Origin: Acidobacteriota bacterium
GTDB taxonomy: Bacteria; Acidobacteriota; UBA4820; DSQY01
NCBI GenBank assembly: GCA_049591295.1
Contig: JBAWEQ010000259.1
Coordinates: 25,812 to 89,811, forward strand
Length of the DNA stretch: 64,000 bases
Reading direction: 5' to 3'
The position numbers and the translations under genes are program-made. Below, piece by piece: positions 2,740 through 60,003 of the stretch. A model generated the notes under the pieces. It did no database searches, was not told the origin of the DNA, and saw only the letters and a list, made by a program, of their open reading frames with translations. Positions within the stretch are counted from its first letter, which is position 1, and every line of letters starts with the position of its first letter.

Positions 2740-3158
2740 TGGCTCCGCTCGACACCCATCTTAGTGAAGATCTTCTCCACCTCCTCGAAGGGCAGGTAGC
2801 CCACGTGCCGTTCGAACTCTTTCCCGTCGGCAGTGAAAAAGATCTGCGTAGGGATCATCATGATCTTATACTCCCGGGCCGCCTCAGGCTTCTTGTCCAG
2901 GTCGATGAATTCGATGACCGCCTTGCCTTTGTAGCGGAGCTCGGCCTCCTGGAGAACCGCCACCATCTGCTTGCACGGGATGCACCACGTCTTGCCCAGA
3001 TCCACCATCCGGGGCAGGGCCCGGGGATCCGCCGGCCTCCCGGCGGCCGTCTTCTCCGGCGGAGGCGCCGCCTTCCCGCCCCGAACTCCAGCCATAACCC
3101 ACACCGACATCAGGATCAAAACCAGGAATACCGCACCCGCGACGACTCTCCTCATCAT
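2736..3158 (-). CDS. Membrane-anchored TlpA-like thioredoxin
   Basis: N-terminal TM anchor followed by a thioredoxin fold with a WCIPC active site. Its 4-nt overlap with ccdA indicates an operon. Confidence 0.7.
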   Translation of the reverse strand: MMRRVVAGAVFLVLILMSVWVMAGVRGGKAAPPPEKTAAGRPADPRALPRMVDLGKTWCIPCKQMVAVLQEAELRYKGKAVIEFIDLDKKPEAAREYKIMMIPTQIFFTADGKEFERHVGYLPFEEVEKIFTKMGVERSH

Positions 3159-3478
3159 TGGTCCCTCCTCTTGGTCATTCTCTTCGACGGGACGCCACCA
3201 CCGGCGCAGGGAAGTCCGGCGGCGCGAAGCACGGCCCGCGCGTTTTCATCCGTGATCCGATAGAAGACCATGGCCCCCTCGCGCTCATCCACGATGATGC
3301 CGTGATCCCTCAAGATGGTCAGGTGCCGGGCCAGGGTCGGCTGGGGAACCCGGAGCTCCGGCAGCATGCGGCACGAGCACTGCCGGCCCTCCCGCGCCAG
3401 AAGGCAGAGGATCCTCAGGCGCAACGGATGACCCAGGTCTCGAAATAATCTGGCTTGTGAAGCGAGCGATTCGGCCAC
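3155..3478 (-). CDS. ArsR/SmtB-family transcriptional repressor (GTG start)
   Basis: HTH_5 signature (LRLRILCLL...QPTLARHLTILRDHGII) and a GGAGGG RBS 5 nt upstream. It is the first gene of the operon. Confidence 0.75.
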   Translation of the reverse strand: MAESLASQARLFRDLGHPLRLRILCLLAREGRQCSCRMLPELRVPQPTLARHLTILRDHGIIVDEREGAMVFYRITDENARAVLRAAGLPCAGGGVPSKRMTKRRDQ

Positions 3479-3498: not shown

Positions 3499-3516
3499 TA
3501 TTCGGATATCCGAATA
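3499..3516. promoter_or_regulatory. Perfect 18-bp palindrome TATTCGGATATCCGAATA, candidate ArsR operator
   Basis: Exact inverted repeat about 20 nt upstream of the arsR-like start codon, in a region that is otherwise non-palindromic. Confidence 0.6.
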
Positions 3517-3670
3517 TAAAGTCAAGGCCGGCGCTGATCCGCCGAGGGTGGGGGACTACAAGACCCCATCGGTTCGGTGCCGGCGGCTGGTGAACCGCCG
3601 CCTTTCTGGCGTAAGGTCACCAGCTCCGAAAGACCGATCTTCGAGCTTGCGCAGATTCTCGATCCGAGCC

Positions 3671-3749: not shown

Positions 3750-4322
3750 TCAGAAACGCACCACCAAGCCGATGCGTGCATCGCCGATGTCCGTCTTGTC
3801 GCTCACGTAACGGACGGAGTCAAAGCCCATATGCGTGTAGGTGAGCTGGAAAGACATGCCCACATTCGGCGTGAAAAAGCGCCGGTAGCCGAAGCCCACC
3901 TCCCCCGCCCACTTGGTCTGAGAAGGCTGATGGACGTACAGGGCACGGCCGCCGTCATGGATCCAGTAGTCCTTCGACTGCATCTCAGCAACGCCCGTGC
4001 CGACGAAGACGAAGAACTGGTCCTTGTCGGTCAGGTTGTAGTCGTACTCGGGGGCGATGGTGAAGGTCCAGATGTTGTTGGTCGTGCTGTTCAGACTGTC
4101 CTTGATCTTGCCGTCCCAGTAGGTGGCGTGGAAGGCGAGCTTCCAGTTGTCGGTGAAGTTGTAGGCGATGCCGGTGCTCGTGTTCCAGTCGCTGTTCATG
4201 AAGTTGCTGGAGGTGTAGTAGCCGCCCTGCAGCTCCCACGTCCAGGGGTTCTTCGGCGCTTGTGCCATGAGCGCCAGGCCGGTCGTCATAAGGGCCAATA
4301 CCGCGATCACGAGCTTTTTCAT
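3750..4322 (-). CDS. Outer-membrane beta-barrel protein (OmpW/OmpA-like porin family)
   Basis: Signal peptide MKKLVIAVLALMTTGLALMAQA, alternating aromatic/hydrophilic beta-strand pattern, C-terminal Phe, and a strong GGAGG RBS. Confidence 0.7.
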   Translation of the reverse strand: MKKLVIAVLALMTTGLALMAQAPKNPWTWELQGGYYTSSNFMNSDWNTSTGIAYNFTDNWKLAFHATYWDGKIKDSLNSTTNNIWTFTIAPEYDYNLTDKDQFFVFVGTGVAEMQSKDYWIHDGGRALYVHQPSQTKWAGEVGFGYRRFFTPNVGMSFQLTYTHMGFDSVRYVSDKTDIGDARIGLVVRF

Positions 4323-9832: not shown

Positions 9833-9863
9833 GATCCGGCGCCCCTCCTGGAATCCCGTCTCC

Positions 9864-9882
9864 GATTTCTGCTTTTCGAATT
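9864..9882. promoter_or_regulatory. TTTTCGAATTCCGAATTTT motif upstream of the CDF gene, candidate ArsR/SmtB-type operator
   Basis: Shares a TCCGAAT half-site with the perfect palindrome at 3499-3516 and sits about 30 nt upstream of the CDF start codon. Confidence 0.3.
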
Positions 9883-9895
9883 CCGAATTTTCCGC

Positions 9896-10507
9896 CTACC
9901 CCTTGTACCCCGAGCACGGGATGCAGTACGGCTTGCCGTCCTTCGTGCGCACGTAGCGTTCGAAAACGAGTTCGCCGCAGCCCGTGCAGATGGCGCTGGC
10001 GAAGGAGCCCTTGGGCGGCTGGTAGTGGAAGTCGGGCCGCTCGGCCACGGAGTAGATCGTCTCACCGGGCAGGCTCAGGCCCCAGTCGATGACCTGCTGG
10101 GTGACGGCCTCCGGGATGCCCGAGGGCTCGATTCCCTTTTTCCGGTAAGTGAAGAATTCGAATCCGCCCATCTCCTTGAGAAACGCGGGTTTCAGGTTGT
10201 AGCGGACGGGGGTCTTGCCTGGATACCAGAAGGTCGCCGCGAGCTTGCCCCAGTAGGTTCTCTCGATGAGAGTCTTGCCGAAAGTGGCGCCCGTGGCGAT
10301 CTGGATGCCGTCCATCAGGCACGTCTGGGGATGCCCCTCGCCCAGCTCGCAGACGACGTGAAGGGCGTGATCCTTCTCCCGCTCGACGCCGAGCTTCTCG
10401 ATCGCCAGGATGCCCATGCGGTAGCCCAACGGCATAAAGGGGCACTTGTGGCCGTGGAACTGGAAAGCCCAGTCGGGTGGCACGAAGTGTTGGTTGGCTT
10501 GAGTCAT
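9896..10507 (-). CDS. FmdE/FwdE-domain protein with C-terminal zinc ribbon
   Basis: FHGHKCPFMPLG motif of the FwdE family, plus a C-terminal CTGCGE...CIPC double CxxC. Confidence 0.65.
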   Translation of the reverse strand: MTQANQHFVPPDWAFQFHGHKCPFMPLGYRMGILAIEKLGVEREKDHALHVVCELGEGHPQTCLMDGIQIATGATFGKTLIERTYWGKLAATFWYPGKTPVRYNLKPAFLKEMGGFEFFTYRKKGIEPSGIPEAVTQQVIDWGLSLPGETIYSVAERPDFHYQPPKGSFASAICTGCGELVFERYVRTKDGKPYCIPCSGYKG

Positions 10508-15278: not shown

Positions 15279-16608
15279 GATCTCCTCCCCGTGCGGTCAC
15301 GAAGGCCAGGTAGTCGACGGCGCTCTGGTAGGCGTAGAGGCCCCGCCAGTAGGCCGTTTCCCCCGCCAGCTCCTCTCCCCTCGCGGCCAGGTAGTCCTCC
15401 ATCTTCCCCGTTCCCTGCTCCAGCTTTAGGTGCTCTACGCGGGCCACCTCCCGGCCCAGACCCCGCTGCGCCTTCCCCGCCTGGTAGAGCGCCTTGGCGG
15501 CTTCGAGGCGGCCCTGGGCGTCGGCCACCTGGGTGGTGATTTCCAGCTCCTTGGCGCGCTCCCGCTGCTTGGCTGCCAAGAGAGTGGCATCCGCCTCCTG
15601 GATGGCGTAGACGCGGCTCAGGCCGTTGAACAGTGGCACCTTCAGCATGAGGGTCCACTCCCTCGTGTCGAGGGGATCCCTGAGCGACGGCGCGTCGTTG
15701 CGGAGGTAGGTGGCCTGCAGGACGAGCTGCGGCGAGAAGGCCTCCAGCGCCAGGTGCTTTTTGTGTTCGAAGATGCGCGTGGCGTCCCGTGAGGCGAGCA
15801 GGTCGCCCCGTCCCGAAAGGGCTGCCCGGGTATTGGCATCCGGAGACGCGGCGGGCGCCGGTGGCTCTCCCTCGACCTCCTCCAGGTCGTAGCCTCCGGC
15901 GGGAGGCTCCCGGCCCATGAGAGCCGCGAGGGTGGCCTGGGCCGTTTCCGACTGGGCGGCGAACTCGGCCACCTGCGCCTCGGCCCCGCGCAGAGCGTAG
16001 GTGACCTTGGCCGCGTCCACGGGAGCCCACGCCCCGACCTTGACCTTGAGCTGCGCGTCGGACTCATCCTTCTCCAGCGCCGCCCGATAGGCCTGCGCCG
16101 CTTCCATGGCGTGCTGGACGATGAGCGCGTTACGGTAGGCCGCGCGGACGTTGTAGCGGATCTGGTCCCGCGTGAAGAGGGCCAGGTGCTCGGAGGCGTT
16201 TCGCGAGAGCCTCGCGATGCGGTCGCCCTCGTGGAGCCCCCCGGCCGCCAGGAGTGGGACCTGCCAGGTGAGGCCGTAGTGGACCTGGTTGCGGTCCCAC
16301 GGAAGCTGGCTCATGCCCAGGGCGGGAACCACGAAGAGCTCCTCGGCCATGGGCACGACGATGCGGTCTCGCTCGAAGTGGTTGTAGACGCCGACCACAT
16401 CCAGCTCGCCGAAGTGGCGCCCGAAGGTCTCCGCCGTTCGCTTTCCGGCCGCCACCGCATCCAGCTTCGCCGCCTGCAATGCGGGATTGGCTGAGAGCGC
16501 CGTGCTTTCGGCTTGCGCAAGGCTCAACGGCTCGGCCGCATGAACCGGCATACAAATCACCGCGGCCAGCAGGCACGCGCCCGCCGCCGCCCTCCAGACT
16601 CTGTTCAT
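15271..16608 (-). CDS. TolC-like outer-membrane efflux protein
   Basis: Signal peptide and the duplicated OEP repeat architecture. Overlaps the MFP gene. Confidence 0.8.
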   Translation of the reverse strand: MNRVWRAAAGACLLAAVICMPVHAAEPLSLAQAESTALSANPALQAAKLDAVAAGKRTAETFGRHFGELDVVGVYNHFERDRIVVPMAEELFVVPALGMSQLPWDRNQVHYGLTWQVPLLAAGGLHEGDRIARLSRNASEHLALFTRDQIRYNVRAAYRNALIVQHAMEAAQAYRAALEKDESDAQLKVKVGAWAPVDAAKVTYALRGAEAQVAEFAAQSETAQATLAALMGREPPAGGYDLEEVEGEPPAPAASPDANTRAALSGRGDLLASRDATRIFEHKKHLALEAFSPQLVLQATYLRNDAPSLRDPLDTREWTLMLKVPLFNGLSRVYAIQEADATLLAAKQRERAKELEITTQVADAQGRLEAAKALYQAGKAQRGLGREVARVEHLKLEQGTGKMEDYLAARGEELAGETAYWRGLYAYQSAVDYLAFVTARGGDHE

Positions 16609-16952
16609 GGCCCCTCCTGCTTCAGGCGTGTCCTGCCCTGATCCGGTCCTACTATTTTGCTGCAGTTTAGGATGGCCGACGCTCTCGGGTCAACGACCTG
16701 GTAGAAGACCTTCGCCCCCTCGCGGCGGTCCGCCACGACCCCGTGGTCCTTCAGGATTCGCAAGTGCCGCGAGAGCGTCGGCTGGTCCGCGCGGCAAGAG
16801 TGCGCCAGGCTGCAGACGCACTCCTTCTCCACCGACAGCAGCCGGATCACGATGGCCAGCCGCAGCGGATGCGACAGATCCCCGAAGAGACGCGCCAGGC
16901 TCTCCCGGCTCCCCGCCCCCTGAAGCTGTCGTGGCCATATATCCATAACCAT
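16605..16952 (-). CDS. ArsR/SmtB-family metalloregulator (alternative longer start at 17000)
   Basis: HTH_5 domain with an ECVCSLAHS metal-site motif like SmtB/CzrA/CadC. A GGAG RBS lies before the MVMDIW start. Its 4-nt overlap with tolC indicates an operon. Confidence 0.65.
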   Translation of the reverse strand: MVMDIWPRQLQGAGSRESLARLFGDLSHPLRLAIVIRLLSVEKECVCSLAHSCRADQPTLSRHLRILKDHGVVADRREGAKVFYQVVDPRASAILNCSKIVGPDQGRTRLKQEGP

Positions 16953-17045
16953 ATGTTCTCCGTCCTTGAAAAAGGCGCCCAAGCGCGCCTTCGGTCTCAA
17001 GGTGCGCCTCGGCGGCGCCGGGCGCCTTGACGCCCGTCAAGAAGG

Positions 17046-17090
17046 GAGAGGTGGGATTGGGGACTACGGATTTTCGATTTGGGAGTTGGG
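17046..17090. repeat. G-rich dispersed motif copy A (GAGAGGTGGGATTGGGGACTACGGATTTTCGATTTGGGAG)
   Basis: 15/16 identity to GAGGTTGGATTGGGGA at 59411. It shares the GGATTTT and GATTTGGG submotifs with that copy and GGTGGG..GGGGACTAC with 3545-3559. Confidence 0.55.
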
Positions 17091-17124
17091 CAGAAGAGGG
17101 TTCTTCGCCTCGCTCCTCCGCCCT

Positions 17125-20100
17125 CTACTCTCCACCCTCCATCGTCTTTCGCGTCCCCTGCTCGCTTCCACCCACCATCAGCGGAAGCACGACGGTGAAG
17201 GTGGAACCGGGCGGCGGATCGTTGTTGACGGCGTGGACGGTGCCGTGATGGGCCTGGACGATCTTTCGAACGATGGCGAGCCCCAGCCCAGTGCCCCCCT
17301 GGCGGCCCGTCTGGAAGGGCTGGAAGAGCCTGGGAAACAGCTCGCCTGCAATGCCCGGGCCCTCGTCGGCGACGGTGACGACGGCGTGCTCCTCCTCGCA
17401 CCGGGCGTGGACCATCACCCGCCCCCCGGGCGGCGTGAAGGAGACGGCATTTTCCATCAGGTTCAGAAATACCTGGACGAGCTTGTCGGAGGAGCCCATG
17501 ACCGCGAGCGGCCCGGAGGGCAGTTCCAGCGCGCACGGGCATTCCCCTGAGGCGCTCTTGAGCGCCAGCTCGAAGCACTGGCGCAGAACCTCTTCCAGGC
17601 GCACGGGCACGAAGGCCGCCTCTTCCACGGGTCTGCCGAGGGTGAGCAGGTCGTTCATGAGCGTGTTCAGGCGGCGGGTCTGGTCGAGGATGTGGCCGAC
17701 GTACTCGCCGAACTCTCGGTGGTCTTTGAGCTTGCGCTCCAGCGCCGTGACGATGGTCGTGATAGCGAAGAGGGGGTTGCGCACTTCGTGGGCCACGCCG
17801 CCGGCGATCATCCCCACCGTCTCCAGGTTCTTGGCGCGGGCCAGCGCCTCCTCCAGCTCCTTGCGCTCCGTGATATCGATGCAGGTCCCCTCGATGAGCG
17901 GAGGGCCTCCCGCCTCGTCCTCCACCAGGGCGGCGCTCTCCAGGAGCCAGAGAGGGCGGCCGTCCCTTCGCCGGTAGCGCATTTCGAGGTTGGTCACGGT
18001 CCGCTCGCGCAGCATCTTCTCCCGAAAGGCCGCGAGGTCAGCCGGAGCCGCGTAAAAGGACTCCGCCGGGAGGAGTACGGCCTCGTCGGGAGACTCGAAA
18101 CCGAACATCTTGGCGAAGGCCTGGTTGCACTCCGTGAGACCCCCACCCATCCTGCTGCGGTAGATTCCCGCGACGTTCCGTTCGAAGAAGTGGCGGTAGC
18201 GCCGCTCCGATTCCGCGAGCCGCTCCTCGGCCCGCTTGCGTTCGGTGATGTCGTAAGCGGTACAGAGAACGGCCTTCTCGCCGCGCAGGTCGCAGGCCGC
18301 GGCGGTGAAGTCGATCCAGCGAGCCTGTCCCCCCTTCGCCACCACGCGGAACTCGTAGCGCGGCGATGCGCTTCCTCCCCGCCCGCGGACCTGAAGGTTT
18401 GCCCGCACCATGGGCAGATCTTCGGGGTGGACGATGGAGAGCACGCTTCGGCCCAGCAGCTCCTCCGCTTCGTAGCCCGTGAGGCGGCAGACCTCGGGGT
18501 TGGCATAGACGAACTCTTCGCCGCGGTAGACGAAGATGGCGGCGTGGGCCGACTCGGCGAGCGTCTGGAAGGTGGCCCGGCTCTCCTCCAGCTCGGCCTC
18601 GGCCTTCGCCCGCTTCAGCCGGTCCTCCAGCGCCTCCTCGGCGAAGGCGAGGTCGGAGACGAGGCCCGAGAGCAGCTCCACGAGCTCGGGAAAGTAGGCC
18701 TCGCGCTCGCCCGAGTAGACGGCCAGCACCCCCTCCACCTCGCCGCGCACCACGATGGGGAAGCTCGCCACCGAGCGAAAGCCGTGGCGCTCCATGATGC
18801 TGCTCCACGGCGAGAAGCGCGCCTCGCTCAGAAGGTCCTGGTGGAGCGAGGGGCGCTCCGTCCTCGCGGCGGTCCCCATGGAGCCCTGGCCGAGGGGGCT
18901 CTCGTCCCAGCTGACCTCGATGGTCTGGATCTCCTCCAGCGTCATGCCGTAGGCAGCGGCCGGGGCCAGCCGAAAGGTGCCAGGCTGTTTGAGGCCGATC
19001 CAGGCCATCTTCAGCCCCGCCTCCTGCACGAGCAGGCGGCAGACGGTCTGACGCAGCACCTCGATGCTCCCGGCCCTCACCATGGCCTGCTGAGCCTGCA
19101 CCTGCGTGGCCAGCACGCGGGCCAGGAGGGCCTCGCGTGCCTGGGTCCGCTCGCGTTCGGCGAGGGTCCGGCCCAGCTCCAGGAGGCGCCTGTGCCGCAA
19201 GTAGGCGTATAGGAACGCGCCGCCGATGAGGAAGACGGCGAGAAGAAGGAAGGAGCCGACCGCCAGGGCGCGGCGATAGGGGGCCATGGCCTCCCAGCGC
19301 CCCACTTTGACGACGAGCCCCCAACCGGGCCCGGGAAGATATTTCGTGGCAGCCAGCACCTCCGTGCCATCCAGATCGTGGAACAGGCCGAAGGTCTCCG
19401 TGCCCGCAGCGGCCTTGGAGACCGCCAAGGAGGCGGCCGGCTCCGCCACGAGCCGTCCCGCTGCGCCCTCGCGCGAGGGGCTCAACAGGCGCACCCCCGC
19501 CCCCTCCCGCTTCACCAGCAGGCACTCGCCGCTCCCCGTGGGGAAGGGCTGCTTGGCCAAGAAGGGAAACAGCCAGTGCGCAGGGTCCGACAGAAGAAGC
19601 AGCGCCACTGGGCCGGCGGGCTCTCGCACCACCTGCACCGTTGCCACCAGAGGTCGTCCCGTCTCGTCCAGGAAACGCTGCCGGGGAGCGGTGTCACTCT
19701 CACCAGCCTCCCGTGCGAAGGCAAGCGCCTGCCGGGAGGGCCGCATCCCCGCCCACGTCACCGGGTCTCCGCCGCTTCCCACGAGCGCCGCTCCCACGTA
19801 GTGGTCGTGGCGGACCATGTCCGCGAGGATCTCCCGCAGATGAGCGGCTTCCGCTTCTTGCTCCGGTCCCGCGGAAGCGGTGGCCAGGTGGCGGACGATG
19901 GGAAAGAAGGAGAGCGTCACGGCGTCCTCTTGCCGCTCGTCGAGCCACCGAAGAACCGTAGCCTCGCGGTCCTGCGCCACGGCCGTGAGCCGCCCCTGCC
20001 AGAGGGCGAGAGTCTGAAGGCGTTGCCAGTGGGCGAAGAGAAGGAATAGCACCACCGCCAACGACGCGCCGCCCAAGAGCAGGGCCGCCCCTCTCGGTAC

Positions 20101-20148
20101 AGATTCTGGGGGCCGTTCCGTGGCGGGTTGTCCCGACCTTTCCCCCAT
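17125..20148 (-). CDS. Multi-sensor signal transduction histidine kinase (periplasmic sensor, GAF, PAS x2, HisKA, HATPase_c)
   Basis: 1007 aa with an N-terminal TM-flanked sensor, PAS/GAF blocks, an H-box, and N/G1/G2 boxes at the C-terminus (GGTGLGLAIVRKIV). No response regulator is adjacent. Confidence 0.8.
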   Translation of the reverse strand: MGERSGQPATERPPESVPRGAALLLGGASLAVVLFLLFAHWQRLQTLALWQGRLTAVAQDREATVLRWLDERQEDAVTLSFFPIVRHLATASAGPEQEAEAAHLREILADMVRHDHYVGAALVGSGGDPVTWAGMRPSRQALAFAREAGESDTAPRQRFLDETGRPLVATVQVVREPAGPVALLLLSDPAHWLFPFLAKQPFPTGSGECLLVKREGAGVRLLSPSREGAAGRLVAEPAASLAVSKAAAGTETFGLFHDLDGTEVLAATKYLPGPGWGLVVKVGRWEAMAPYRRALAVGSFLLLAVFLIGGAFLYAYLRHRRLLELGRTLAERERTQAREALLARVLATQVQAQQAMVRAGSIEVLRQTVCRLLVQEAGLKMAWIGLKQPGTFRLAPAAAYGMTLEEIQTIEVSWDESPLGQGSMGTAARTERPSLHQDLLSEARFSPWSSIMERHGFRSVASFPIVVRGEVEGVLAVYSGEREAYFPELVELLSGLVSDLAFAEEALEDRLKRAKAEAELEESRATFQTLAESAHAAIFVYRGEEFVYANPEVCRLTGYEAEELLGRSVLSIVHPEDLPMVRANLQVRGRGGSASPRYEFRVVAKGGQARWIDFTAAACDLRGEKAVLCTAYDITERKRAEERLAESERRYRHFFERNVAGIYRSRMGGGLTECNQAFAKMFGFESPDEAVLLPAESFYAAPADLAAFREKMLRERTVTNLEMRYRRRDGRPLWLLESAALVEDEAGGPPLIEGTCIDITERKELEEALARAKNLETVGMIAGGVAHEVRNPLFAITTIVTALERKLKDHREFGEYVGHILDQTRRLNTLMNDLLTLGRPVEEAAFVPVRLEEVLRQCFELALKSASGECPCALELPSGPLAVMGSSDKLVQVFLNLMENAVSFTPPGGRVMVHARCEEEHAVVTVADEGPGIAGELFPRLFQPFQTGRQGGTGLGLAIVRKIVQAHHGTVHAVNNDPPPGSTFTVVLPLMVGGSEQGTRKTMEGGE

Positions 20149-20416
20149 CGCCCCCTCGCCTGGAAAGTTTGCCCATCAGGGTCTATCGAGACTTTCTGCC
20201 GGCTCCCTGGGGTCCATCCGGTTGTGCGGCTATCGTAACACCAATGGCCTCTGCCCACTCAAGGCGGGGCCTTGGCCCCAAATCCCGCGATGCCATTTCG
20301 CCCGTGGGAGCGCCGCCCCGGCGCGACAGGCCGTTTACGAGGCGCCGGTCATGGTTCTGAGGGCGGCACGACTCTGCCTACTAGCCTTACTCCCCTTGTC
20401 CCCCGTCCCCTGTCCC

Positions 20417-21127
20417 CTATTCCCCCGCTATTCGCCTCAGCTCTTCCACGTCCAGCAGGCGGAAACAGCCCCTGCCTTCTCGTTCGATGAGGCCCTCCCG
20501 CCGAAGTCTGGCGAGGGCGCGGGAGAGGTTTTCCGGAGCCAGGTGGAGCGTGCGTGCGAACTCTTCCTGCGTGAAGGGGAGCCGGGCGTAGGCGACTCCG
20601 ATGCCGGAGGCCGTGCTTTCAACGAGGGCGAGCAGTCCCCGCGCCGTCCGATCGAGAGCTCCCTGTTGCCCCACGAGGCTGAGCTGGTCCAGACAGCCCC
20701 GCAGCCGGCCGGCGAGGTAGGCCATGAGGTGGGTGCAGAAGGTGGGGTTCTCGTGGATGAAGCCCAGGAAGGCCGCCCGGTCGAGTTCCTGAATCGCCGA
20801 TGGCTCGAGAGCCTCCACGGAGAGCGGCCTGGGGCCGCCATCCAAGAGCGGAAGGAAACCGAAGAACTCCCTGGGCTTGATCACGAAGACCGTGATCTCA
20901 CGGCCGTCGGGCAGGCGCCGGAAGGCCTTCAGGCGCCCGTCGGCCACGACGAAGAAGGAACCCCCGGTCTCTCCCTCCAGGAAGACGACGGCTCCTTTAT
21001 CCAGTCGCCTGGGCCTGAAGAGGGCAGCCAGGCTCCGCGACCCTTCCGGCCCTAGATGGGCGAAGGGCGTCTGTGCGATCAATTCCAACAACGGTACTTC
21101 GGGCGTCATCTCGCCTCTCTCCTCCAC
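20417..21127 (-). CDS. Crp/Fnr-family transcriptional regulator
   Basis: cNMP-binding beta-roll followed by a C-terminal HTH (EEFARTLHLAPENLSRALARLRREGLI). Confidence 0.8.
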   Translation of the reverse strand: MEERGEMTPEVPLLELIAQTPFAHLGPEGSRSLAALFRPRRLDKGAVVFLEGETGGSFFVVADGRLKAFRRLPDGREITVFVIKPREFFGFLPLLDGGPRPLSVEALEPSAIQELDRAAFLGFIHENPTFCTHLMAYLAGRLRGCLDQLSLVGQQGALDRTARGLLALVESTASGIGVAYARLPFTQEEFARTLHLAPENLSRALARLRREGLIEREGRGCFRLLDVEELRRIAGE

Positions 21128-27633: not shown

Positions 27634-28028
27634 GCTCCCTCCGCCGGATCCCATCGGGGTCCGGGCCTTGAGGTTAGCACAGTCGGTGTCATCAGCGATG
27701 GCCGCCGATCCTGCCGAGGGCCTCCTGGAAATGGGGAGAGCCCCTGTTCTCCACGTGGGTTCCGCCATCCAGGGCAGCCCTCCCTTCGTCCGTTCCGACC
27801 CATCCTCGATGGGTGTGCCGCTTCGGCACATCCGGGCCCCGATGCCCCGGCCGCTTTGGCACGGTTCATCCCTTCACATTTCACAATGAGCTGAAAAAAC
27901 GTCATTTCCCCTCCTCGGGGGAACTGGCATGCGTGATGCATTCAAGAAAACCTTCGGTGCCGAGGACAACGTCCCAGGCGCCGAGAGGTTCGGCCCCTCC
28001 GAACCCAATCCCTCCCTCCCCTTCCACA

Positions 28029-28050
28029 GGCCCGCCCGCAAGGGCGGGCC
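28029..28050 (+). other. GC-rich stem-loop GCCCGCCC-GCAA-GGGCGGGC (GNRA-like loop) within a long intergenic region
   Basis: 8-bp perfect stem with a GCAA tetraloop followed by CGCCCCATTTCT. No upstream gene on either strand for it to terminate. Confidence 0.35.
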
Positions 28051-28135
28051 GCCCCATTTCTAGGGGCGTGCCCCGTGCTTGAGGAAGAGACTCGGCCCCG
28101 CTTTCGATCACCAGCCGCGCGCTGGGCCCGTGCTA

Positions 28136-28335
28136 GTGCGCTGTCTCTAAAATGGGTTGACCATTGAAGCATGTGAGAGACAGCACACGGAGGGGTGCTG
28201 GGAGGAAGCCTCCCCGCTCCTTCGGGGTAACAGCCCCCGCGGGCGGACGCCCTAGGGGCGGAGCCCCTTGGGAAGTGTTGTGTCCCAGGAAAAAGCCATG
28301 GTAAACACAATCCAGGGACACAACACTAGCATGGA
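28136..28335 (+). ncRNA. Candidate structured RNA / 5' leader upstream of 28353 (series of stable hairpins, two mutually exclusive)
   Basis: Hairpin 28140-28184 (GCTGTCTCT...AGAGACAGC), GGGAGG-aagc-CCTCCC at 28198-28214 competing with CCCCG-ctcctt-CGGGG at 28212-28227, and a 15-bp stem GTGTTGTGTCCCAGG/CCAGGGACACAACAC at 28275-28326 ending 9 nt before the RBS. None of the ORFs in this region look like genes. Confidence 0.35.
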
Positions 28336-28352
28336 AGGCCGAGGAGCGAAGC

Positions 28353-28715: not shown

Positions 28716-28782
28716 GAGGGCCTGGCCGGGTGACGGGTCCCTCTTCCTGGCCCCCTTCTCCCCGCCTTACTCCCCGCCACGT

Positions 28783-28876
28783 CTTGCGGCGGCTCCGCTA
28801 TCTCCCTCACCCCCCGCTGGCCACCTCCCGGCAGATCAGCTTCTGGTGCGCCGCCTCCAGCGGACACCCGCCGCCG
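28783..28876 (-). repeat. Direct repeat duplicating the 3' end of the radical SAM/SPASM gene (copy of 29020-29112)
   Basis: The minus strand encodes GGGCPLEAAHQKLICREVASGG-stop, versus CGGGCPLEAAHQKLYCREVASGG-stop at the genuine C-terminus. About 90% nt identity over ~90 nt, and the similarity continues into the 3' flank (GAGCCGCCGCA). Confidence 0.7.
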
Positions 28877-29042
28877 CGTCGCGCAAGCGCTCCCCAAGGA
28901 GGGCCTCGGCCGGCCCTCCTCGGCGCTCCCCCGGCCTTCGCCGGGCTCGCTGCTCCTCTCTGCTCTTGCGCGGGTTGCCCTCTGCGCGGGGGAACCTCTC
29001 CGTTCCCCCGCTCCCCCTCGCCCTGCGGCGGCTCCCTTCCCC

Positions 29043-30389
29043 TCACCCCCCGCTGGCCACTTCCCGGCAATAGAGCTTCTGATGGGCCGCCTCCAGCGGA
29101 CACCCGCCGCCGCAGAGGCTGAGGTGCTCACAGGCCTCGCACTCGGGCAGGGGCTTCTGGGGCTGACGGAGCTTGAGGCAGAGGGGGTGGTTCCAGATGG
29201 ACTCCCACGAATCGGTCAGAAGGTTGCCTACGCCTTCGTAATAGGATTGGCAGGGGATGACCGTTCCGTCCGGCTCCACCGCCATGCTCAGCCTCGCCGC
29301 CGTGCACTGCTTGACGCCGAGCGCCATCTCCACGGGGTTCAACTCGCAGTACCGCGTCGGGGTGTACCAGACGAAGCGGAGCCGCTTTTCGCGGGCCTGA
29401 CGGGCCAGCGTTTCCAGAACGGGTGCGACCTCCCGCGAGGTGAGGTCGATGCCCGAGCTCTTGCCCTTGCCCGAGTAGATCATCCCGTTGACGGCAAAGG
29501 TGCCGAGACCTTCGGCGGCCACCAGATCCACGAGGTTCTCGATGCCGGGCAGGTTGACCCGCGTGAGCGTGGTGTTGGTCAGGGTGAAGAGGCCCGAAGC
29601 CTTGGACTGGCGGAGCCCGGCCAGGGTCTCCTCGAAGGAGTCGGATCGGGTCAGGGCGTTGTGGAGGCTCGGATCGGCCGACTCCAGGGTGATCTGGACG
29701 TGATCCAGACCGGCCTCCCGAAGCGCCCCCGTGTAGGCGGCGTCCCGCAGGCGCCGCCCGTTGGTGTTGAGGCCCGTGACCAGCCCAAGCTCTCCGGCGT
29801 AGGCCACCAGCGCGGGCAGGTCGTCGCGGAGCGTGGGCTCGCCTCCCGTGAAGACCACGTGCGGTATGCCCGCCGACTCGCAGGCGTCCAGCACCCGCCT
29901 CCAACCAGCCGTGTCTAGCTCGGAGACCTGCCTGGATTCCTGGTTGTAGCAGTGGCTGCACCGGTTCTGGCAACGGTAGGTGAGGGCCAGGTCCATGCGC
30001 AGCGGGGCGCTCATGGCGGTTGAGAAGGGCTCGATGAGCTCGATCCCCAGGTCCGACAGGGGACAGACCTGGTCCGTGGCGGAGAGCCTACGCACCGCCT
30101 GGAGGATGCGCGAGAGGTCCGGTTCCAGCACCGCGCGCTTTACGCGATAGCGCCGGGCCATGAGATCCACCGTCTCGGCCTCGCTCAATCCGTCCACCAG
30201 GTGCTTCACCATCTCCGCCGCGGTGGGGTTCAGGTGGAGGATGCGGCTGGCGTCGAGGGTAAGGACTCCGGCTCCCGAGGGCTCGACCCGGAGGTGGATC
30301 CGGTGGGTGGTCCCCTCCACGATGAGGGTCCCCGGGTAGAGTCCCACCTTGACCCGCTCGGGTCTCCTGAAGAGGTCTCTCAGCCCCAT
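29043..30389 (-). CDS. Radical SAM/SPASM-domain peptide-modifying enzyme with N-terminal PqqD-like RRE domain
   Basis: CQNRCSHC (CxxxCxxC) radical SAM cluster motif. The N-terminal ~110 aa resemble a PqqD/RiPP-recognition element (LHLNPTAAEMVKHLVDG...). The C-terminal SPASM Cys array is CEACEHLSLCGGGCP. Confidence 0.8.
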   Translation of the reverse strand: MGLRDLFRRPERVKVGLYPGTLIVEGTTHRIHLRVEPSGAGVLTLDASRILHLNPTAAEMVKHLVDGLSEAETVDLMARRYRVKRAVLEPDLSRILQAVRRLSATDQVCPLSDLGIELIEPFSTAMSAPLRMDLALTYRCQNRCSHCYNQESRQVSELDTAGWRRVLDACESAGIPHVVFTGGEPTLRDDLPALVAYAGELGLVTGLNTNGRRLRDAAYTGALREAGLDHVQITLESADPSLHNALTRSDSFEETLAGLRQSKASGLFTLTNTTLTRVNLPGIENLVDLVAAEGLGTFAVNGMIYSGKGKSSGIDLTSREVAPVLETLARQAREKRLRFVWYTPTRYCELNPVEMALGVKQCTAARLSMAVEPDGTVIPCQSYYEGVGNLLTDSWESIWNHPLCLKLRQPQKPLPECEACEHLSLCGGGCPLEAAHQKLYCREVASGG

Positions 30390-40132: not shown

Positions 40133-40257
40133 GCGCTACCTCCCTTTCACAAACTGCCTGTGTTCCCGCTTTCCGAGCCCCAGGCCGAGACGCACCCAGG
40201 CCCGCCGGGTGCATTTCGGCCACTTGGTAGTATACGCCCGCCATACGGGCAAGGGTT

Positions 40258-41052
40258 TCAGAGAGAGCGGACCGGCGCCGCCTCCCTGGCCAGGTGGGCC
40301 GCGCCCAGGGCGCCGGTGAGCTGGGGGCGTTCGGGGATCCGGAAGGAGACGCCGAGGAACTCCTCCAGGCACCGGACCAGATCTACGTTGAGCGCCCCCC
40401 CTCCCGTGAAGACGGCCGGTTCCCCCACGCCCGCCTGGCGGACCAGCCCGGCGAGCCGCTTGGCCATGGCGCGGTGGACGGCGTGGGCGATGTCGGGCAC
40501 CGCCTCGCCCCGGGCGATGAGCGAGATGACCTCGCTCTCGGCGAAGACCGTGCAGGTGGAGGACATGGCCAGCTCGCGCGTGCTGTTGTTCCCCGCGGGG
40601 CCGAGCCCCTCGATGCCCGTGCGGAGCGTCGCGGCCATGGCGTTGAGGAACCGGCCCGTGCCCGCGGCGCACTTGTCGTTCATGGCGAAGGCGAGCACCC
40701 GGCCCGAGGCCTCCAGCCTGATGGCCTTGCTGTCCTGTCCCCCCACGTCCACCACGAGGGCGGCGCCCGGAAAGAGGGCGCAGGCCCCCCGGGCGTGACA
40801 GGTGATCTCCGTCACCCGCTTCTGGACGAAAGGAAGGGCCTCGCGCCCGTAGCCCGTGCCCACCACGAACGCCAGATCTTCGCTCCGTGCCCCCGCCGCG
40901 GAGACGGCCCCATCGAGCGCATCCCTCCCGCAGACGGCGAGCTGGGGCGTGGTCTCGGCCATCCCCCAGCCCAGCAGCCGCCCCTCCGCGTCCAGGACCA
41001 CCGCCTTGGCCGTCATGGAGCCCACGTCCAGTCCGCCGTAGAGGGAGGCCAT
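40258..41052 (-). CDS. BadF/BadG/BcrA/BcrD-type ATPase (HgdC-like activase of 2-hydroxyacyl-CoA dehydratase)
   Basis: The true start MASLYGGLDVGSMTAKAVVLD is an actin-like ATPase phosphate-1 motif. Conserved Cys for the bridging [4Fe-4S]. Internal to the 408-aa ORF. The start codon abuts the upstream dehydratase stop. Confidence 0.75.
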   Translation of the reverse strand: MASLYGGLDVGSMTAKAVVLDAEGRLLGWGMAETTPQLAVCGRDALDGAVSAAGARSEDLAFVVGTGYGREALPFVQKRVTEITCHARGACALFPGAALVVDVGGQDSKAIRLEASGRVLAFAMNDKCAAGTGRFLNAMAATLRTGIEGLGPAGNNSTRELAMSSTCTVFAESEVISLIARGEAVPDIAHAVHRAMAKRLAGLVRQAGVGEPAVFTGGGALNVDLVRCLEEFLGVSFRIPERPQLTGALGAAHLAREAAPVRSL

Positions 41053-53868: not shown

Positions 53869-54358
53869 CTCCCCATGCGATTGGATCCCTCTCTCGATCT
53901 GCCCGTGGCTGTTATGGCAAATCCACAAAGAGCTCATGCAGCGCATCAGGTTTTCTGTGAATAGCGAGGATGCGGCGGCGCTGCCTCGTTCGGCAGAGAA
54001 CTCATCCAGAAGGACTTCTCAGGAAGCTGTTCCTTCCCAACCGCCTGAAGAGGCCTGTGGAATTCCCTGTGGAAAGTGGGGTTCAGCCCGGTTCCTAGAG
54101 GCCCCTCCGCTGACCGGTGCCCGCCCATCCAGGCCGGAATTATGCCATTATTTATCAACTCGTTGCGGCCACTGGCCTTGGAAGGACGGCGCGACCAGTC
54201 CTCTGCCGGCGCGGCGCTTCATCCATCTTCGGGCTGTGCAAAAGCCGTGGATCATCAGCCGGGCGGTGGTTTCGTAACGAGGAGGAGCCGGATCTCTCTT
54301 CCGTTTGAGGCCCCATTCGCCTTGACACGAGAGAAGCCGACCGGCCAGACTGCCTTGC

Positions 54359-56613: not shown

Positions 56614-57081
56614 CGCACCTTGCTTGGCTCGTCCCCTTCTTCATCCCGGCCAGGGGCTCGCCTTCCCATGGGGAGCCCCTGTTCCTGGCTGTTCAGCTAC
56701 TTCCAGCCCCCCTCTGGCGACCTGCCTTCCGGAGCGAGGCGGCGGCAGGCGCGGCCGAGGCCCAGCCGGGGTTCGGATCCGACAAGCCCCCCGCTGTGGA
56801 CGGGCATGCCTCTATACAGAGCTGCATCAGTGAATGCGCATAAGGTGGTGGGGCTTGGGGGTATGCCACTCTGTATTCGCGGGGAAGGCCCCATCCCTTG
56901 CGAGTGCGGCCCTGCGGGCCGCGCAAGGGCTGAGCCCTCCCCGCGGGCCCTACCGGGAGAGGCGCGGCGGCGCCTCCCCAGGACCCCCACCCGCAGACAG
57001 CGCGCCGGACTTCCGCCGCGCTGATAACCCTTGAATTTTCAGCTCATCGGGATGTATGCTTGGAGGCAAAGGAGAGTGAAC

Positions 57082-57933: not shown

Positions 57934-59406
57934 TCACCGCGCGCTGGGTTTCGAGCCCTCGGAACCGCCCCAGGACACCTGGTCCACCGTGACGAAGCGG
58001 TAATTCTGTCTCTTGAGGGATTCGATCAGGGTGGGCAGGATCACGTCCGCCCGCATGTCGCCCTGCCGTTCGGTGCCTAGGTGCATGAGCACGATGCCTC
58101 CGTCCACTCCGTCGGGGGCCGTTGCGGCCCTCTTGAGAAGCCCGGCGAGGATCTGCTGCGGGGTGTGAAAGAGCGGGTTGGCCGGTGAGGCGACCCAATC
58201 CAAGGTATCCAGGTGGGGGGTCCAGTACACCGCGCTGAATCCCGCGTCATGGGCCCAGCCCAAGATCTCCGAGTTGAATTCGCCGAAGGGTGCCCGCCAG
58301 TAGGGTGCCATGGTCTTCCCCGTGATGAGCTTGTAGAGATCGGCGGCCTTCAGGAGCTGGTCGCGCACGAAGTCCTCCGTCACTCCCGGGAGCGTGGCCT
58401 GCCGGTGATCGAAGGAGTAGGTCGTCAGGTGGGGATGGCTGAAGGTGTGGTTGCCCACCACGTACCCCGCGTCCGCGATCCGCCGGACCAAATCGGGATA
58501 GTGCCGCATGTACATGCCGGTGAGGAAGAAGGTGGCGCGGACGTGCTCCTTCTGGAGATCGTCCAGGATGGCCTCGGTGGCGCTGTCGTTGGAGCCGCCG
58601 TCGAAGGTCAGGAGCACCTCGTGCTGTCCCACGGGCGCCCGGATCAGGTTGTAGCTGCCGCCCAGCGCTTCGTTGACAGCTTCCGTGGGCGCCTCCAGCC
58701 TGGCGGGCGCCGCCCGCAGATCGACCCGCACGGCGGGGCCGTAGGAGGAGTTGCCCCGGTTGTCGAAATACCTGGCCTGGAGGATGTTTCGGGGCTGGGT
58801 GAGCGGCACGGCCGCGAAGCTCCACTGTCCCTGCTTGCAGAGCTGGACGCTCACCCTCTGGCCGTTCATGTAGAGGCCCACCATGGCTTCGGGCGGCGCG
58901 TGCCCCCGGACCTCGATGGTATTCGTCGTCACCTCGGCGCCGTTCACCGGCTCGTCGATGACGATGGACCCGGGCGACTCCCAGTCCACTTTCTCTTGGT
59001 CGAGTTCACGCTCGTGCACCGTCCCGAACTTGGGAAGTACCGCCTCCGGCGCGGGCATGAAGCGGTCCGCGTTCATGGAGAACCACACCGCCAGACCGCC
59101 CCCCGCCAGCAGGCAGCCGAACAGGACGATCCGGAACCAGATTCCACCCAGGGCCGTCCGGTTCCACGCCTTCAGACGGTTCAGCCGCTCCTTCCTCCCG
59201 GTCAGCCTGGCGCACCGCCGCGAGCAGAAGATGTGGCCGGCGGTCCGGATCTGGCAGCTCGGGCAGATGGGTCTCCTGCACTCGTAGCATCTGCGGCGGG
59301 CCGTCTTGGTTGGGTGGCGGAAGCACGGCGCCCCCGCTGGACGCTCCTCGGTCATCCAGTTAGGATAGCGCGATTCCCGGAAGGCTTCTCTCCCTTCTTC
59401 CTGCAA
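57934..59406 (-). CDS. Polysaccharide deacetylase (NodB homology, CE4) with N-terminal Cys-rich zinc-ribbon/B-box segment and a TM helix
   Basis: TFDGGSND and HTFSHP CE4 motifs. The N-terminal segment reads CFRHP...CYECRRPICPSCQ...CSRRC. Confidence 0.7.
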   Translation of the reverse strand: MQEEGREAFRESRYPNWMTEERPAGAPCFRHPTKTARRRCYECRRPICPSCQIRTAGHIFCSRRCARLTGRKERLNRLKAWNRTALGGIWFRIVLFGCLLAGGGLAVWFSMNADRFMPAPEAVLPKFGTVHERELDQEKVDWESPGSIVIDEPVNGAEVTTNTIEVRGHAPPEAMVGLYMNGQRVSVQLCKQGQWSFAAVPLTQPRNILQARYFDNRGNSSYGPAVRVDLRAAPARLEAPTEAVNEALGGSYNLIRAPVGQHEVLLTFDGGSNDSATEAILDDLQKEHVRATFFLTGMYMRHYPDLVRRIADAGYVVGNHTFSHPHLTTYSFDHRQATLPGVTEDFVRDQLLKAADLYKLITGKTMAPYWRAPFGEFNSEILGWAHDAGFSAVYWTPHLDTLDWVASPANPLFHTPQQILAGLLKRAATAPDGVDGGIVLMHLGTERQGDMRADVILPTLIESLKRQNYRFVTVDQVSWGGSEGSKPSAR

Positions 59407-59407
59407 A

Positions 59408-59457
59408 GGGGAGGTTGGATTGGGGATTGGGGATTTTGGGGCATGGGATTTGGGGGG
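59408..59457. repeat. G-rich dispersed motif copy B (GGGGAGGTTGGATTGGGGATTGGGGATTTTGGGGCATGGGATTTGGGGGG); G-quadruplex-capable
   Basis: Six or more runs of G3-6 on the plus strand in a divergent intergenic region. It is related to the 17046 and 3545 copies. Confidence 0.6.
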
Positions 59458-59595
59458 TGCTGGCCATCACCCGCTGAGCGCCTTTAGGGCCTCCCGCTCC
59501 CTCGCCTCCCGCCTCCGGTTCTCGTACTCCCAAGCGGCGGCCACCCTGGTTGTACCTCCCGGCGACTCACCGTATAGTGCCCGCAGGAGGGATCC

Positions 59596-60003
59596 TTGGA
59601 GCTCAAGAAGATCATCCTCCACTACCTGGACGGGCGGATTGAGCGGGCCTACGCCCCCCTCTTCGAGGAGGGATGCGATCCGGTCCCCACGGTGGATCTC
59701 CAGGGGAGGCCCGAGATGGTCCCGCTGGAACACCTGAAGGCGGCCTTCTTTGTGAGGAGCTTCACCGGCAACCCGGCCTACGACCGGCCCTCCTCTCCCG
59801 AGGAGTGGGAGGTCGACACCGGCGGGAATCTCGTGGGCGTGCTGTTTCACGACGGCGAGACCATCTTCGGAGAGCTTCGGCCCGGAGCCGACGTGGCCAG
59901 GGGCTTCTACCTCACCGTCCTGGACGAACAGGACAACAATCTCCTCATCTACGTCAATCCGGCGAGCCTCCTGGCACCGCCTCGCGAGCCGGAGGCATGC
60001 TGA
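59596..60003 (+). CDS. Hypothetical protein
   Basis: 135 aa with coding-like composition and no recognisable motif. Confidence 0.45.
   Translation: MELKKIILHYLDGRIERAYAPLFEEGCDPVPTVDLQGRPEMVPLEHLKAAFFVRSFTGNPAYDRPSSPEEWEVDTGGNLVGVLFHDGETIFGELRPGADVARGFYLTVLDEQDNNLLIYVNPASLLAPPREPEAC

Follow-up and report, generated by a model that had tools for sequence, protein, structure and literature searches.

Two G-rich segments that resemble each other in the intergenic DNA of a 64-kb stretch from an Acidobacteriota bacterium (the window, 64,000 nucleotides), one at 17.0 kb and the other at 59.4 kb, are degenerate tandem arrays of the 7-nt unit GGGGATT/GGGGACT (CCCCAAT/CCCCAGT on the other strand). 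We consider it likely, at a probability of about 0.7, that they are decayed arrays in unconstrained spacer DNA which probably arose by slippage and are alike via their common unit, and that they are neither a copied element nor a protein site. An earlier note, made from the sequence of the window, had described the two segments, together with a third at 3.5 kb, as copies of a short dispersed motif. The tandem heptamer periodicity, which that note had overlooked, appears to be the source of the similarity, and we infer two simple sequence repeat (SSR) arrays with one unit and no fixed 40-nt element. The window has a GC content of 67%, and its orthologous loci assign it to uncultured Acidobacteriota related to Thermoanaerobaculia metagenome-assembled genomes. 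The DNA covered comprises these 64 kb and about 60 kb of relatives; loci outside the window are given by label (L002 and so on).

Periodicity and resemblance of the two arrays

The two focal arrays, each in a perfect 7-nt register, are as follows.

17042..17097, + strand: array A, G-rich; it reads, from 17048, GAGGTGG GATTGGG GACTACG GATTTTC GATTTGG GAGTTGG
59405..59459, + strand: array B; it reads, from 59411, GAGGTTG GATTGGG GATTGGG GATTTTG GGGCATG GGATTTG GGGGGTG

Autocorrelation of array A gave z values of 4.2 at lag 7 and 2.7 at lag 14, and on the − strand this array consists of 8 units with the consensus CCCCAAT, directly adjoining a palindrome (17026-17041) that is described below. The corresponding values for array B were 3.2 and 3.0; it contains two perfect tandem GGGGATT units (59422-59435) within 7 units, and Tandem Repeats Finder (TRF) reports period 7 at 59417-59454. 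Across the window, period 7 was the most enriched intergenic period, with 4 arrays against 0.3 expected from block shuffles, and other periods not divisible by 3 had 1-2 intergenic arrays each (0-0.8 expected).

The local alignment of 17041-17090 with 59405-59454 reached a score of 41, the best of 552 intergenic-pair comparisons in the window (runner-up 34), and this score was reached by none of 500 whole-region shuffles and by none of 2000 mono- or dinucleotide shuffles of the two segments of ~55-60 nt. The sequences and coordinates that the earlier note had given for these two copies were correct (GAGAGGTGGGATTGGGGACTACGGATTTTCGATTTGGGAG begins at 17046), as was its 15/16 core, in which GAGGTGGGATTGGGGA (17048-17063) and GAGGTTGGATTGGGGA (59411-59426) differ by one base, and the submotifs GGATTTT and GATTTGGG are present in both copies.

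For the proposed third copy, only part of the description stood.

3544..3559, + strand: proposed third copy GAGGGTGGGGGACTAC, upstream of arsR#2, with a single GGGGACT unit; its membership in the motif is unsupported

This sequence exists, one base away from the position first assigned to it, but it has only the 9-mer GTAGTCCCC in common with the region upstream of arsR#1, the arsR gene beside array A; the alignment score of 18 was reached by 229 of 1000 shuffles, and lag-7 autocorrelation revealed no 7-nt periodicity. Two of the three copies are therefore real. We also considered the third segment as a remnant of an arsR duplication and rejected this, since the two arsR genes of the window are paralogues (repeat family D8), yet their upstream regions share that chance-level 9-mer only.

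Enrichment of the motif as a dispersed word was not clear either: GGATTGGGGA with at most one mismatch occurs 8 times in the window versus 7.0 expected. The word CCCAATCCC has 8 occurrences versus 1.4 expected; half of these (4 of 8) are intergenic, and several of the coding copies sit at one conserved position in orthologous efflux operons. In an unbiased intergenic test of thousands of k-mers, no word of the motif family did better than p ~3e-4, though such words were among the top matches, and we judged that this value would not survive correction for multiple tests; the top enriched word was AAGGGAG, which is Shine-Dalgarno-like. Regular-expression counts of two or three GGGGAY units were not above the block-shuffled expectation, and only the extended arrays stand out.

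Variation of array A at the arsR locus

Gene coordinates confirmed the context reported earlier, in which all three segments are intergenic and lie beside a regulator gene, between divergent genes and in the spacer between an arsR and an outer membrane protein (OMP) gene, respectively. Array A is located between a PAS/GAF histidine kinase gene on its upstream side (sensor kinase, 17125-20148, − strand) and an ArsR-family gene (16605-16952, − strand), the first gene of an OEP/MFP/RND efflux operon of the arsR-czcCBA type. Array B is located between the divergent genes for a polysaccharide deacetylase (57934-59355, − strand) and a DUF6982 protein (59596-60003, + strand), and the third segment between arsR#2 (3155-3478, − strand) and an OMP beta-barrel gene (3750-4322, − strand).

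At the arsR locus, the spacer between the fixed anchors GAAGAAC and CTTGACG measures 58 nt in the window, 43 nt in L002 and 71 nt in L003, and array A has 8, 6 and 10 units in these loci, respectively, always in a single 7-nt register relative to the palindrome. The promoter-proximal part of array A, CCCCAATCCCACCTCTCCCTT, is identical in L002; in L003 the motif has diverged and the array also has CCCCAGT units, and in L004-L009 other heptamers stand in its place. More distant arsR orthologs carry the heptamers CTTAACA and CTCAAAA at the position of array A and, farther upstream, (GAGTGAA)x4.6 or (TGAAGAG)x13. As a separate observation, the gene upstream of arsR carries (TGAAGAG)x13 and related arrays at its 3' end (L007:5713-5804, L006:3001-3032), and the TGA in this unit gives a stop in all three frames because 7 is not a multiple of 3.

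Two features between array A and the arsR gene are conserved.

17026..17041, − strand: palindrome CTTGACG-NN-CGTCAAG, which on the arsR sense strand directly follows array A; separate from the repeat
16969..16991, − strand: GC-rich hairpin with T-run, just upstream of the arsR ribosome-binding site

The palindrome is identical in 8 of 8 orthologous loci except for two central bases; it looks like an operator and is a far better candidate for this role than the array. The stem of the hairpin is kept in eight orthologs, with two compensatory pair changes, and all eight share a conserved downstream block of palindrome, hairpin with T-run and start region.

This control region (16953-17041, − strand), found upstream of the arsR homologue in L002-L010 with the hairpin and T-run some 35 nt after the palindrome, may comprise an ArsR operator plus an attenuator or terminator; it has no Rfam match, and no sigma-70 −10 element was found at the usual spacing after TTGACG. 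At the other arsR gene, the perfect palindrome ATATTCGGATATCCGAAT at 3499-3520 (− strand), between a TTGACT hexamer and the start of arsR#2, is likely an ArsR operator for an operon of the thioredoxin/DsbD/ArsP type. Two of the loci compared, L008 and L010, lie on nearly identical contigs that share the arsR-efflux locus, yet their bins differ (Halothiobacillaceae for one contig, Acidobacteriota for the other), and this conflict points to a binning error or a recent transfer.

Absence of array B from the orthologous spacer in close relatives

In L014-L019, the nearest relatives at the 59.4 kb locus, the DUF6982 protein is identical and gene order is preserved, and a 33-nt block beside the deacetylase start is retained as well as a promoter-like block upstream of the DUF6982 gene. 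Array B is entirely absent from their spacer, where ~290 nt of unrelated sequence and a heptamer run of the CATCNNT type are found. L013 and L020 have (CATCYAT)x4.7 in the orthologous spacer, and in the more distant L022-L024 the spacers of 78-270 nt contained no arrays by inspection. A metagenome scan with the DUF6982 protein yielded one locus only.

59550..59578, + strand: promoter-like block TTGTAC-N17-TATAGT of the DUF6982 gene, conserved in the window, L013 and L014-L020

A consensus promoter scanner did not call this block, in which 8 of 12 positions match. The deacetylase gene, on the other side of the spacer, is without a Shine-Dalgarno sequence and has a conserved TATCCT 6 nt upstream of its ATG (59356-59391 in the window, − strand); its mRNA may be leaderless.

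From the change in unit number at arsR and the absence of array B in relatives it follows, therefore, that the arrays are recent, lineage-specific and dispensable.

Further period-7 arrays in the window

Four more arrays with period 7 were recorded, of which the one at 20.4 kb is absent from the earlier note.

17115..17141, − strand: partner array of A, (GGAGGGT)x3.9, overlapping the kinase stop codon (17125-17127); found by TRF, lag-7 z = 3.3
59489..59516, − strand: partner array of B, (GGGAGGC)x3.9, 34 nt upstream of the TTGTAC-N17-TATAGT block; TRF period 7
20391..20418, − strand: third array of the GGGGAYN family, GGGGACA GGGGACG GGGGACAA GGGG; found by TRF
9854..9889, − strand: weak, purine-rich array just past the stop codon of gene 9896-10507; found by lag-7 scan

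Both focal loci thus have the same layout on the + strand, a G-rich array, a gap of 25-35 nt and a C-rich array, and counterparts of the partner array of A were found at orthologous places in L002 and L003. Arrays of the GGGGAYN unit number three in the window. The one at 20.4 kb directly follows the stop codon of a Crp-family gene (20417-21127), on the coding strand; its four units persist in the window, L002 and L003, with the third unit in L002 decayed to CGAACGG and its G-tract lost. Sigma-70 promoter and terminator scans called nothing at the arrays. Small open reading frames (ORFs) running through the arrays after the Shine-Dalgarno-like AAGGGGAGG were rejected, because 14-nt indels in relatives would shift the frame, and the one at 17 kb also because it is antisense to the kinase gene.

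G-quadruplex potential

The proposal that the copies are G-quadruplex (G4) promoter elements was supported at the sequence level, and for one copy alone. Array B contains a canonical G4 motif (59422-59447; G4Hunter mean 1.86), and its ViennaRNA minimum free energy was −30.4 kcal/mol with G4 allowed, with a G4 in the predicted fold, versus −8.3 without; these energies and those below use RNA parameters and are rough. The array at 20391-20418 (− strand), with four G-tracts and a canonical G4 motif, gave −35.7 kcal/mol with G4 versus −2.4 without. The two top G4Hunter scores in the window belong to the arrays at 20.4 kb (−2.48) and 59.4 kb (2.24). No G4 was predicted for the other two segments: array A has no canonical motif and would need an 18-nt loop, its G4Hunter mean is 1.08 and its minimum-energy fold has no G4, and the third segment (3544-3559) has a mean of 0.62. 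Canonical G4 motifs number 11 across the window, of which 3 are intergenic. At both focal arrays, transcription of the downstream minus-strand gene uses the G-rich strand as template, and this excludes an RNA G4 in the two mRNAs. For the 20391-20418 array, the strongest G4 candidate of the window, an RNA G4 would be possible, in contrast to arrays A and B.

Heptamer arrays in relatives

Arrays of this period are also found beyond the window. The 21-kb locus L025 has five period-7 arrays, all five intergenic. Among these, the pair at L025:4504-4650, (AAGTGAA)n followed by (CTTTTTA)n, begins at a stop codon, folds as a long hairpin (z = −5.4) and is missing from the orthologous spacer of the window (40133-40258); whole array pairs are thus gained or lost between relatives. 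In the organism of the window itself, 1.2 kb beyond the window end, there is a pair of (GGAAACAG)n and (CTGTTTCC)n with a fold z of −3.5 (L012:8238-8356). As an observation in its own right, pairs of a purine-rich and then a pyrimidine-rich array, with units of 7-8 nt, occur just after stops at L025:4504-4650, L012:8238-8356, L007:11928-12046 and L006:9146-9222. A different kind of repeat, of ~100-110 nt in about three tandem copies, is present at L025:7966-8400, and the spacer is 198 nt shorter in the near-identical L026, which indicates variation in minisatellite copy number.

Separately, four stretches of the window are unusually long for DNA without a convincing ORF (27832-28352, 28716-29042, 53869-54358 and 56614-57030), and they have no Rfam match. 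In the first there is a strong hairpin resembling a terminator, along with long inverted repeats (GTGTTGTGTCCC...GGGACACAACAC); C makes up 48% of the second, which has a 111-nt direct repeat (28767-28877 / 29003-29113) that is 78% identical.

Interpretation and alternative explanations

As we picture them, the arrays most likely owe their origin and their changes to slipped-strand mispairing by whole units, a mechanism that suggests itself because the length differences are whole units. Arrays A and B would belong to a wider population of arrays of 7-nt (sometimes 8-nt) units that fill the intergenic spacers of this clade, often at or just after stop codons and with a purine-rich array followed by a pyrimidine-rich one. 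In the better-preserved arrays at 59.4 and 20.4 kb the G-rich strand could fold into an intramolecular G4 and the C-rich strand presumably into an i-motif, which the decayed 17 kb array could not do. Any regulatory effect would probably be weak and independent of the exact sequence, acting through spacing, local DNA structure or an unstructured C-rich transcript; it should be on the DNA rather than the RNA, given that the two downstream minus-strand genes are transcribed with the G-rich strand as template. For arrays A and B we infer little or no sequence-specific function.

Several points weigh against this interpretation. The genome-wide abundance of such arrays is an extrapolation from the DNA covered here. 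The array at 20.4 kb keeps four G-tracts in the window and L003, which is compatible with selection for G4 capacity. Arrays A and B share the decayed edge AAGGG(A)GAGGTKG, which the independent expansion of one unit does not obviously predict and which may reflect common descent of the two arrays. The arrays are identical in the three near-identical strains L025, L026 and L027, so that they do not look hypermutable on that time scale. Finally, arrays recur at the same sites in several lineages, immediately before the arsR palindrome and ahead of the DUF6982 −35 element, and the recurrence of some array at the same positions may result from selection on spacing or structure.

Functional G4 or i-motif elements, which would be kept for the modulating effect of a G4, close to promoters or the ends of genes, on transcription or on the formation of 3' ends, are an unlikely explanation of the arrays, although the two at 59.4 and 20.4 kb combine canonical motifs, the highest G4Hunter scores in the window and a G4 in the predicted fold. 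All four units of the 20.4 kb array are kept in the window, L002 and L003, even if the third unit in L002 is without a G-tract; the intergenic share of the canonical motifs (3 of 11) compares with ~7% of the window that is intergenic; and the GGGGA(C/T)T-type unit forms G4s in vitro, with four units preferred in Xanthomonas (PMC4692102). Against these stand the 17 kb array, with neither a canonical motif nor a predicted G4, the absence of array B from the nearest relatives, and the heptamers without G-tracts (CTCAAAA, CATCYAT, AAGTGAA) that orthologous positions carry elsewhere; moreover, the downstream minus-strand mRNAs do not carry the G-rich sequence, and the predicted energies are only rough. 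Equally doubtful in our estimation is a clade-wide, strand-oriented system of 7-nt arrays at gene boundaries, purine-rich and then pyrimidine-rich at stop codons, sometimes forming hairpins and drawn from few units per lineage. If it existed, a dedicated generating mechanism, or selection of the arrays as boundary, terminator or G4/i-motif elements, would replace neutral slippage, and the lineage of the window would be using GGGGAYT, the unit of Nostoc.

The other two suggestions of the earlier note, a repetitive extragenic palindromic (REP)-like element and a shared regulator-binding site, found no support. An element inserted as one piece of ~110-150 nt (G-array, spacer and C-array), either REP-like or resembling a miniature inverted-repeat transposable element, is very improbable. 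Both loci share the same + strand layout, whole pairs are present or absent between relatives, and other pairs of the clade fold as long hairpins (z = −5.4 and −3.5), but neither focal copy is palindromic and the focal arms are not complementary: for the G-rich arrays against their neighbouring C-rich arrays, 803 and 861 of 1000 shuffles scored as well. RNA folds of both strands at both loci were no better than shuffles (z −0.7 to +1.0), and Rfam 15 gave no gathering-score match in the whole window and chance-level hits only (E > 0.3) in permissive searches around both loci. Inspection of the array boundaries revealed neither target-site duplications nor terminal inverted repeats, and Rehm et al. 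report no link of such repeats to mobile elements (PMC4692102). As for the many copies expected of REP elements, 64 kb held two supported ones, and the core 10-mer was not enriched. We likewise rejected a composite element, since between the two loci the C-rich partner arrays show marginal similarity only: their score of 23 was attained in 104 of 2000 shuffles.

We regard as highly improbable a shared site, GAGGTKGGATTGGGGA, through which the deacetylase gene and the arsR-czcCBA operon would be jointly controlled by a nucleoid protein or transcription factor. The 15/16 core and its flank do lie upstream of two minus-strand genes in the same orientation, and the promoter-proximal CCCCAATCCCACCTCTCCCTT is identical in L002. 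A regulon operator would be conserved at orthologous promoters, whereas this sequence is absent at the 59.4 kb position in the closest relatives; at arsR it varies by whole units, shows divergence in L003 and gives way to other heptamers in L004-L009. Dyad symmetry is lacking, the neighbouring invariant palindrome is far better suited as an operator, and the arsR operon and the deacetylase gene are without obvious common physiology. Least credible of all is that two low-complexity patches rich in G and T resemble each other by chance, without a common cause. In 64 kb one would expect many single 15/16 matches, and GGATTGGGGA is not enriched, but the score of 41 topped all 552 intergenic pairs and was matched by none of the 2000 composition-matched local shuffles, and both segments are independently periodic. 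Chance is the best reading for the third copy (3544-3559) and is refuted for the two main copies.

Comparison with known repeats

A literature search that paired heptameric repeats with Acidobacteria found no paper. In Nostoc PCC 7120 (unit GGGGA(C/T)T) and Xanthomonas (unit GGGAATC), Rehm et al. (2015) described repeats that are dispersed and mostly intergenic, vary in unit number (four being preferred in Xanthomonas), frequently form convergent pairs, fold into G4 in vitro, show no link to mobile elements and have no known function (PMC4692102). For the Nostoc unit, an intramolecular G4 of the G-rich strand and an i-motif of the C-rich strand were demonstrated in vitro (PMC4692102). Judged by sequence, location and variability, the arrays of the window belong to this class, and what is new is the high-GC Acidobacteriota host. 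With respect to sequence (at least 14 bp, two perfect units by the Nostoc definition), array B qualifies, and the unit at 20.4 kb is GGGGACN; array A, with one GGGGACT and GGGATT in 6-8 degenerate units, falls only under the looser definition of a heterogeneous repeat with at least one perfect unit. With respect to location, all arrays are intergenic or overlap a stop codon, and array A lies 90-145 nt from the arsR ATG, beyond the 50 bp typical of the class. The variability is that described above, with 8, 6 and 10 units in the window, L002 and L003 and no array B in L014-L019.

As in Nostoc, identical units GGGGATT and GGGGACT occur in tandem, mostly in intergenic DNA, in heterogeneous or decayed arrays of variable unit number; upstream of ORFs the non-coding strand is often the G-rich one, and the sequence can form a G4 (here by prediction). 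Unlike Nostoc, a cyanobacterium of 41% GC, the host here is an acidobacterium of 67% GC, with three arrays of the GGGGAYN unit seen in 64 kb, and its arrays are short (2 perfect or 6-10 degenerate units), whereas those of Nostoc have up to 26 perfect units. The Nostoc GGGGA(C/T)T repeats are reportedly equivalent to STRR1, a heptamer of cyanobacteria with the sequence CCCCA(A/G)T (Mazel et al. 1990). The GGGAATC repeats of Xanthomonas campestris and X. axonopodis share with the arrays of the window the high-GC genome and the G-rich heptamers, ~90% of them being intergenic; two close convergent arrays are common, some overlap stop codons on the coding strand, and close relatives differ widely in the length and sequence of the repeats at a given intergenic site. 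They differ in the unit itself and in the nature of the pairs: those of Xanthomonas are genuine inverted repeats, while the two focal pairs of the window lack complementarity.

These results remove a false lead, in that there is no new dispersed regulatory motif or REP family here, and they extend the G4-capable GGGGA(C/T)T class to a high-GC Acidobacteriota lineage known only from metagenomes. The GGGGA(C/T)T-type unit, the convergent pairs and the placement at stop codons in three distant phyla raise the question of why heptamers, and this one above all, recur in the spacers of bacteria. For annotation, such arrays should be masked before motif discovery, and most worth following are the array pairs and the conserved arsR control region of palindrome and hairpin beside array A.

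Two other heptamer systems are informative. The TAACTGA repeats of MacGregor (2015), intergenic direct repeats in Beggiatoaceae, cyanobacteria and Bacteroidetes (PMC4679880), are also heptamers in sets of 2-6 copies near gene starts, with one dominant unit per genome and a patchy phylogenetic distribution; unlike the arrays here, their unit is A/T-rich with stop codons and has no G4 potential, and they lie within a few nt of the start codon as proposed sites for post-transcriptional regulators. The phase-variable (ATCTTTC)n arrays in the Haemophilus influenzae hmw1A and hmw2A promoters, in which the unit number sets the expression level (PMC8262952), are long (13-24 units), perfect and hypermutable, whereas the arrays here are short, degenerate and identical between the strains L025, L026 and L027. 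With at most 2 perfect units and this identity, we rejected a phase-variable contingency SSR. Like the arrays here, those of Haemophilus are heptamer arrays in a promoter region, and the hmw promoters show how such an array could act.

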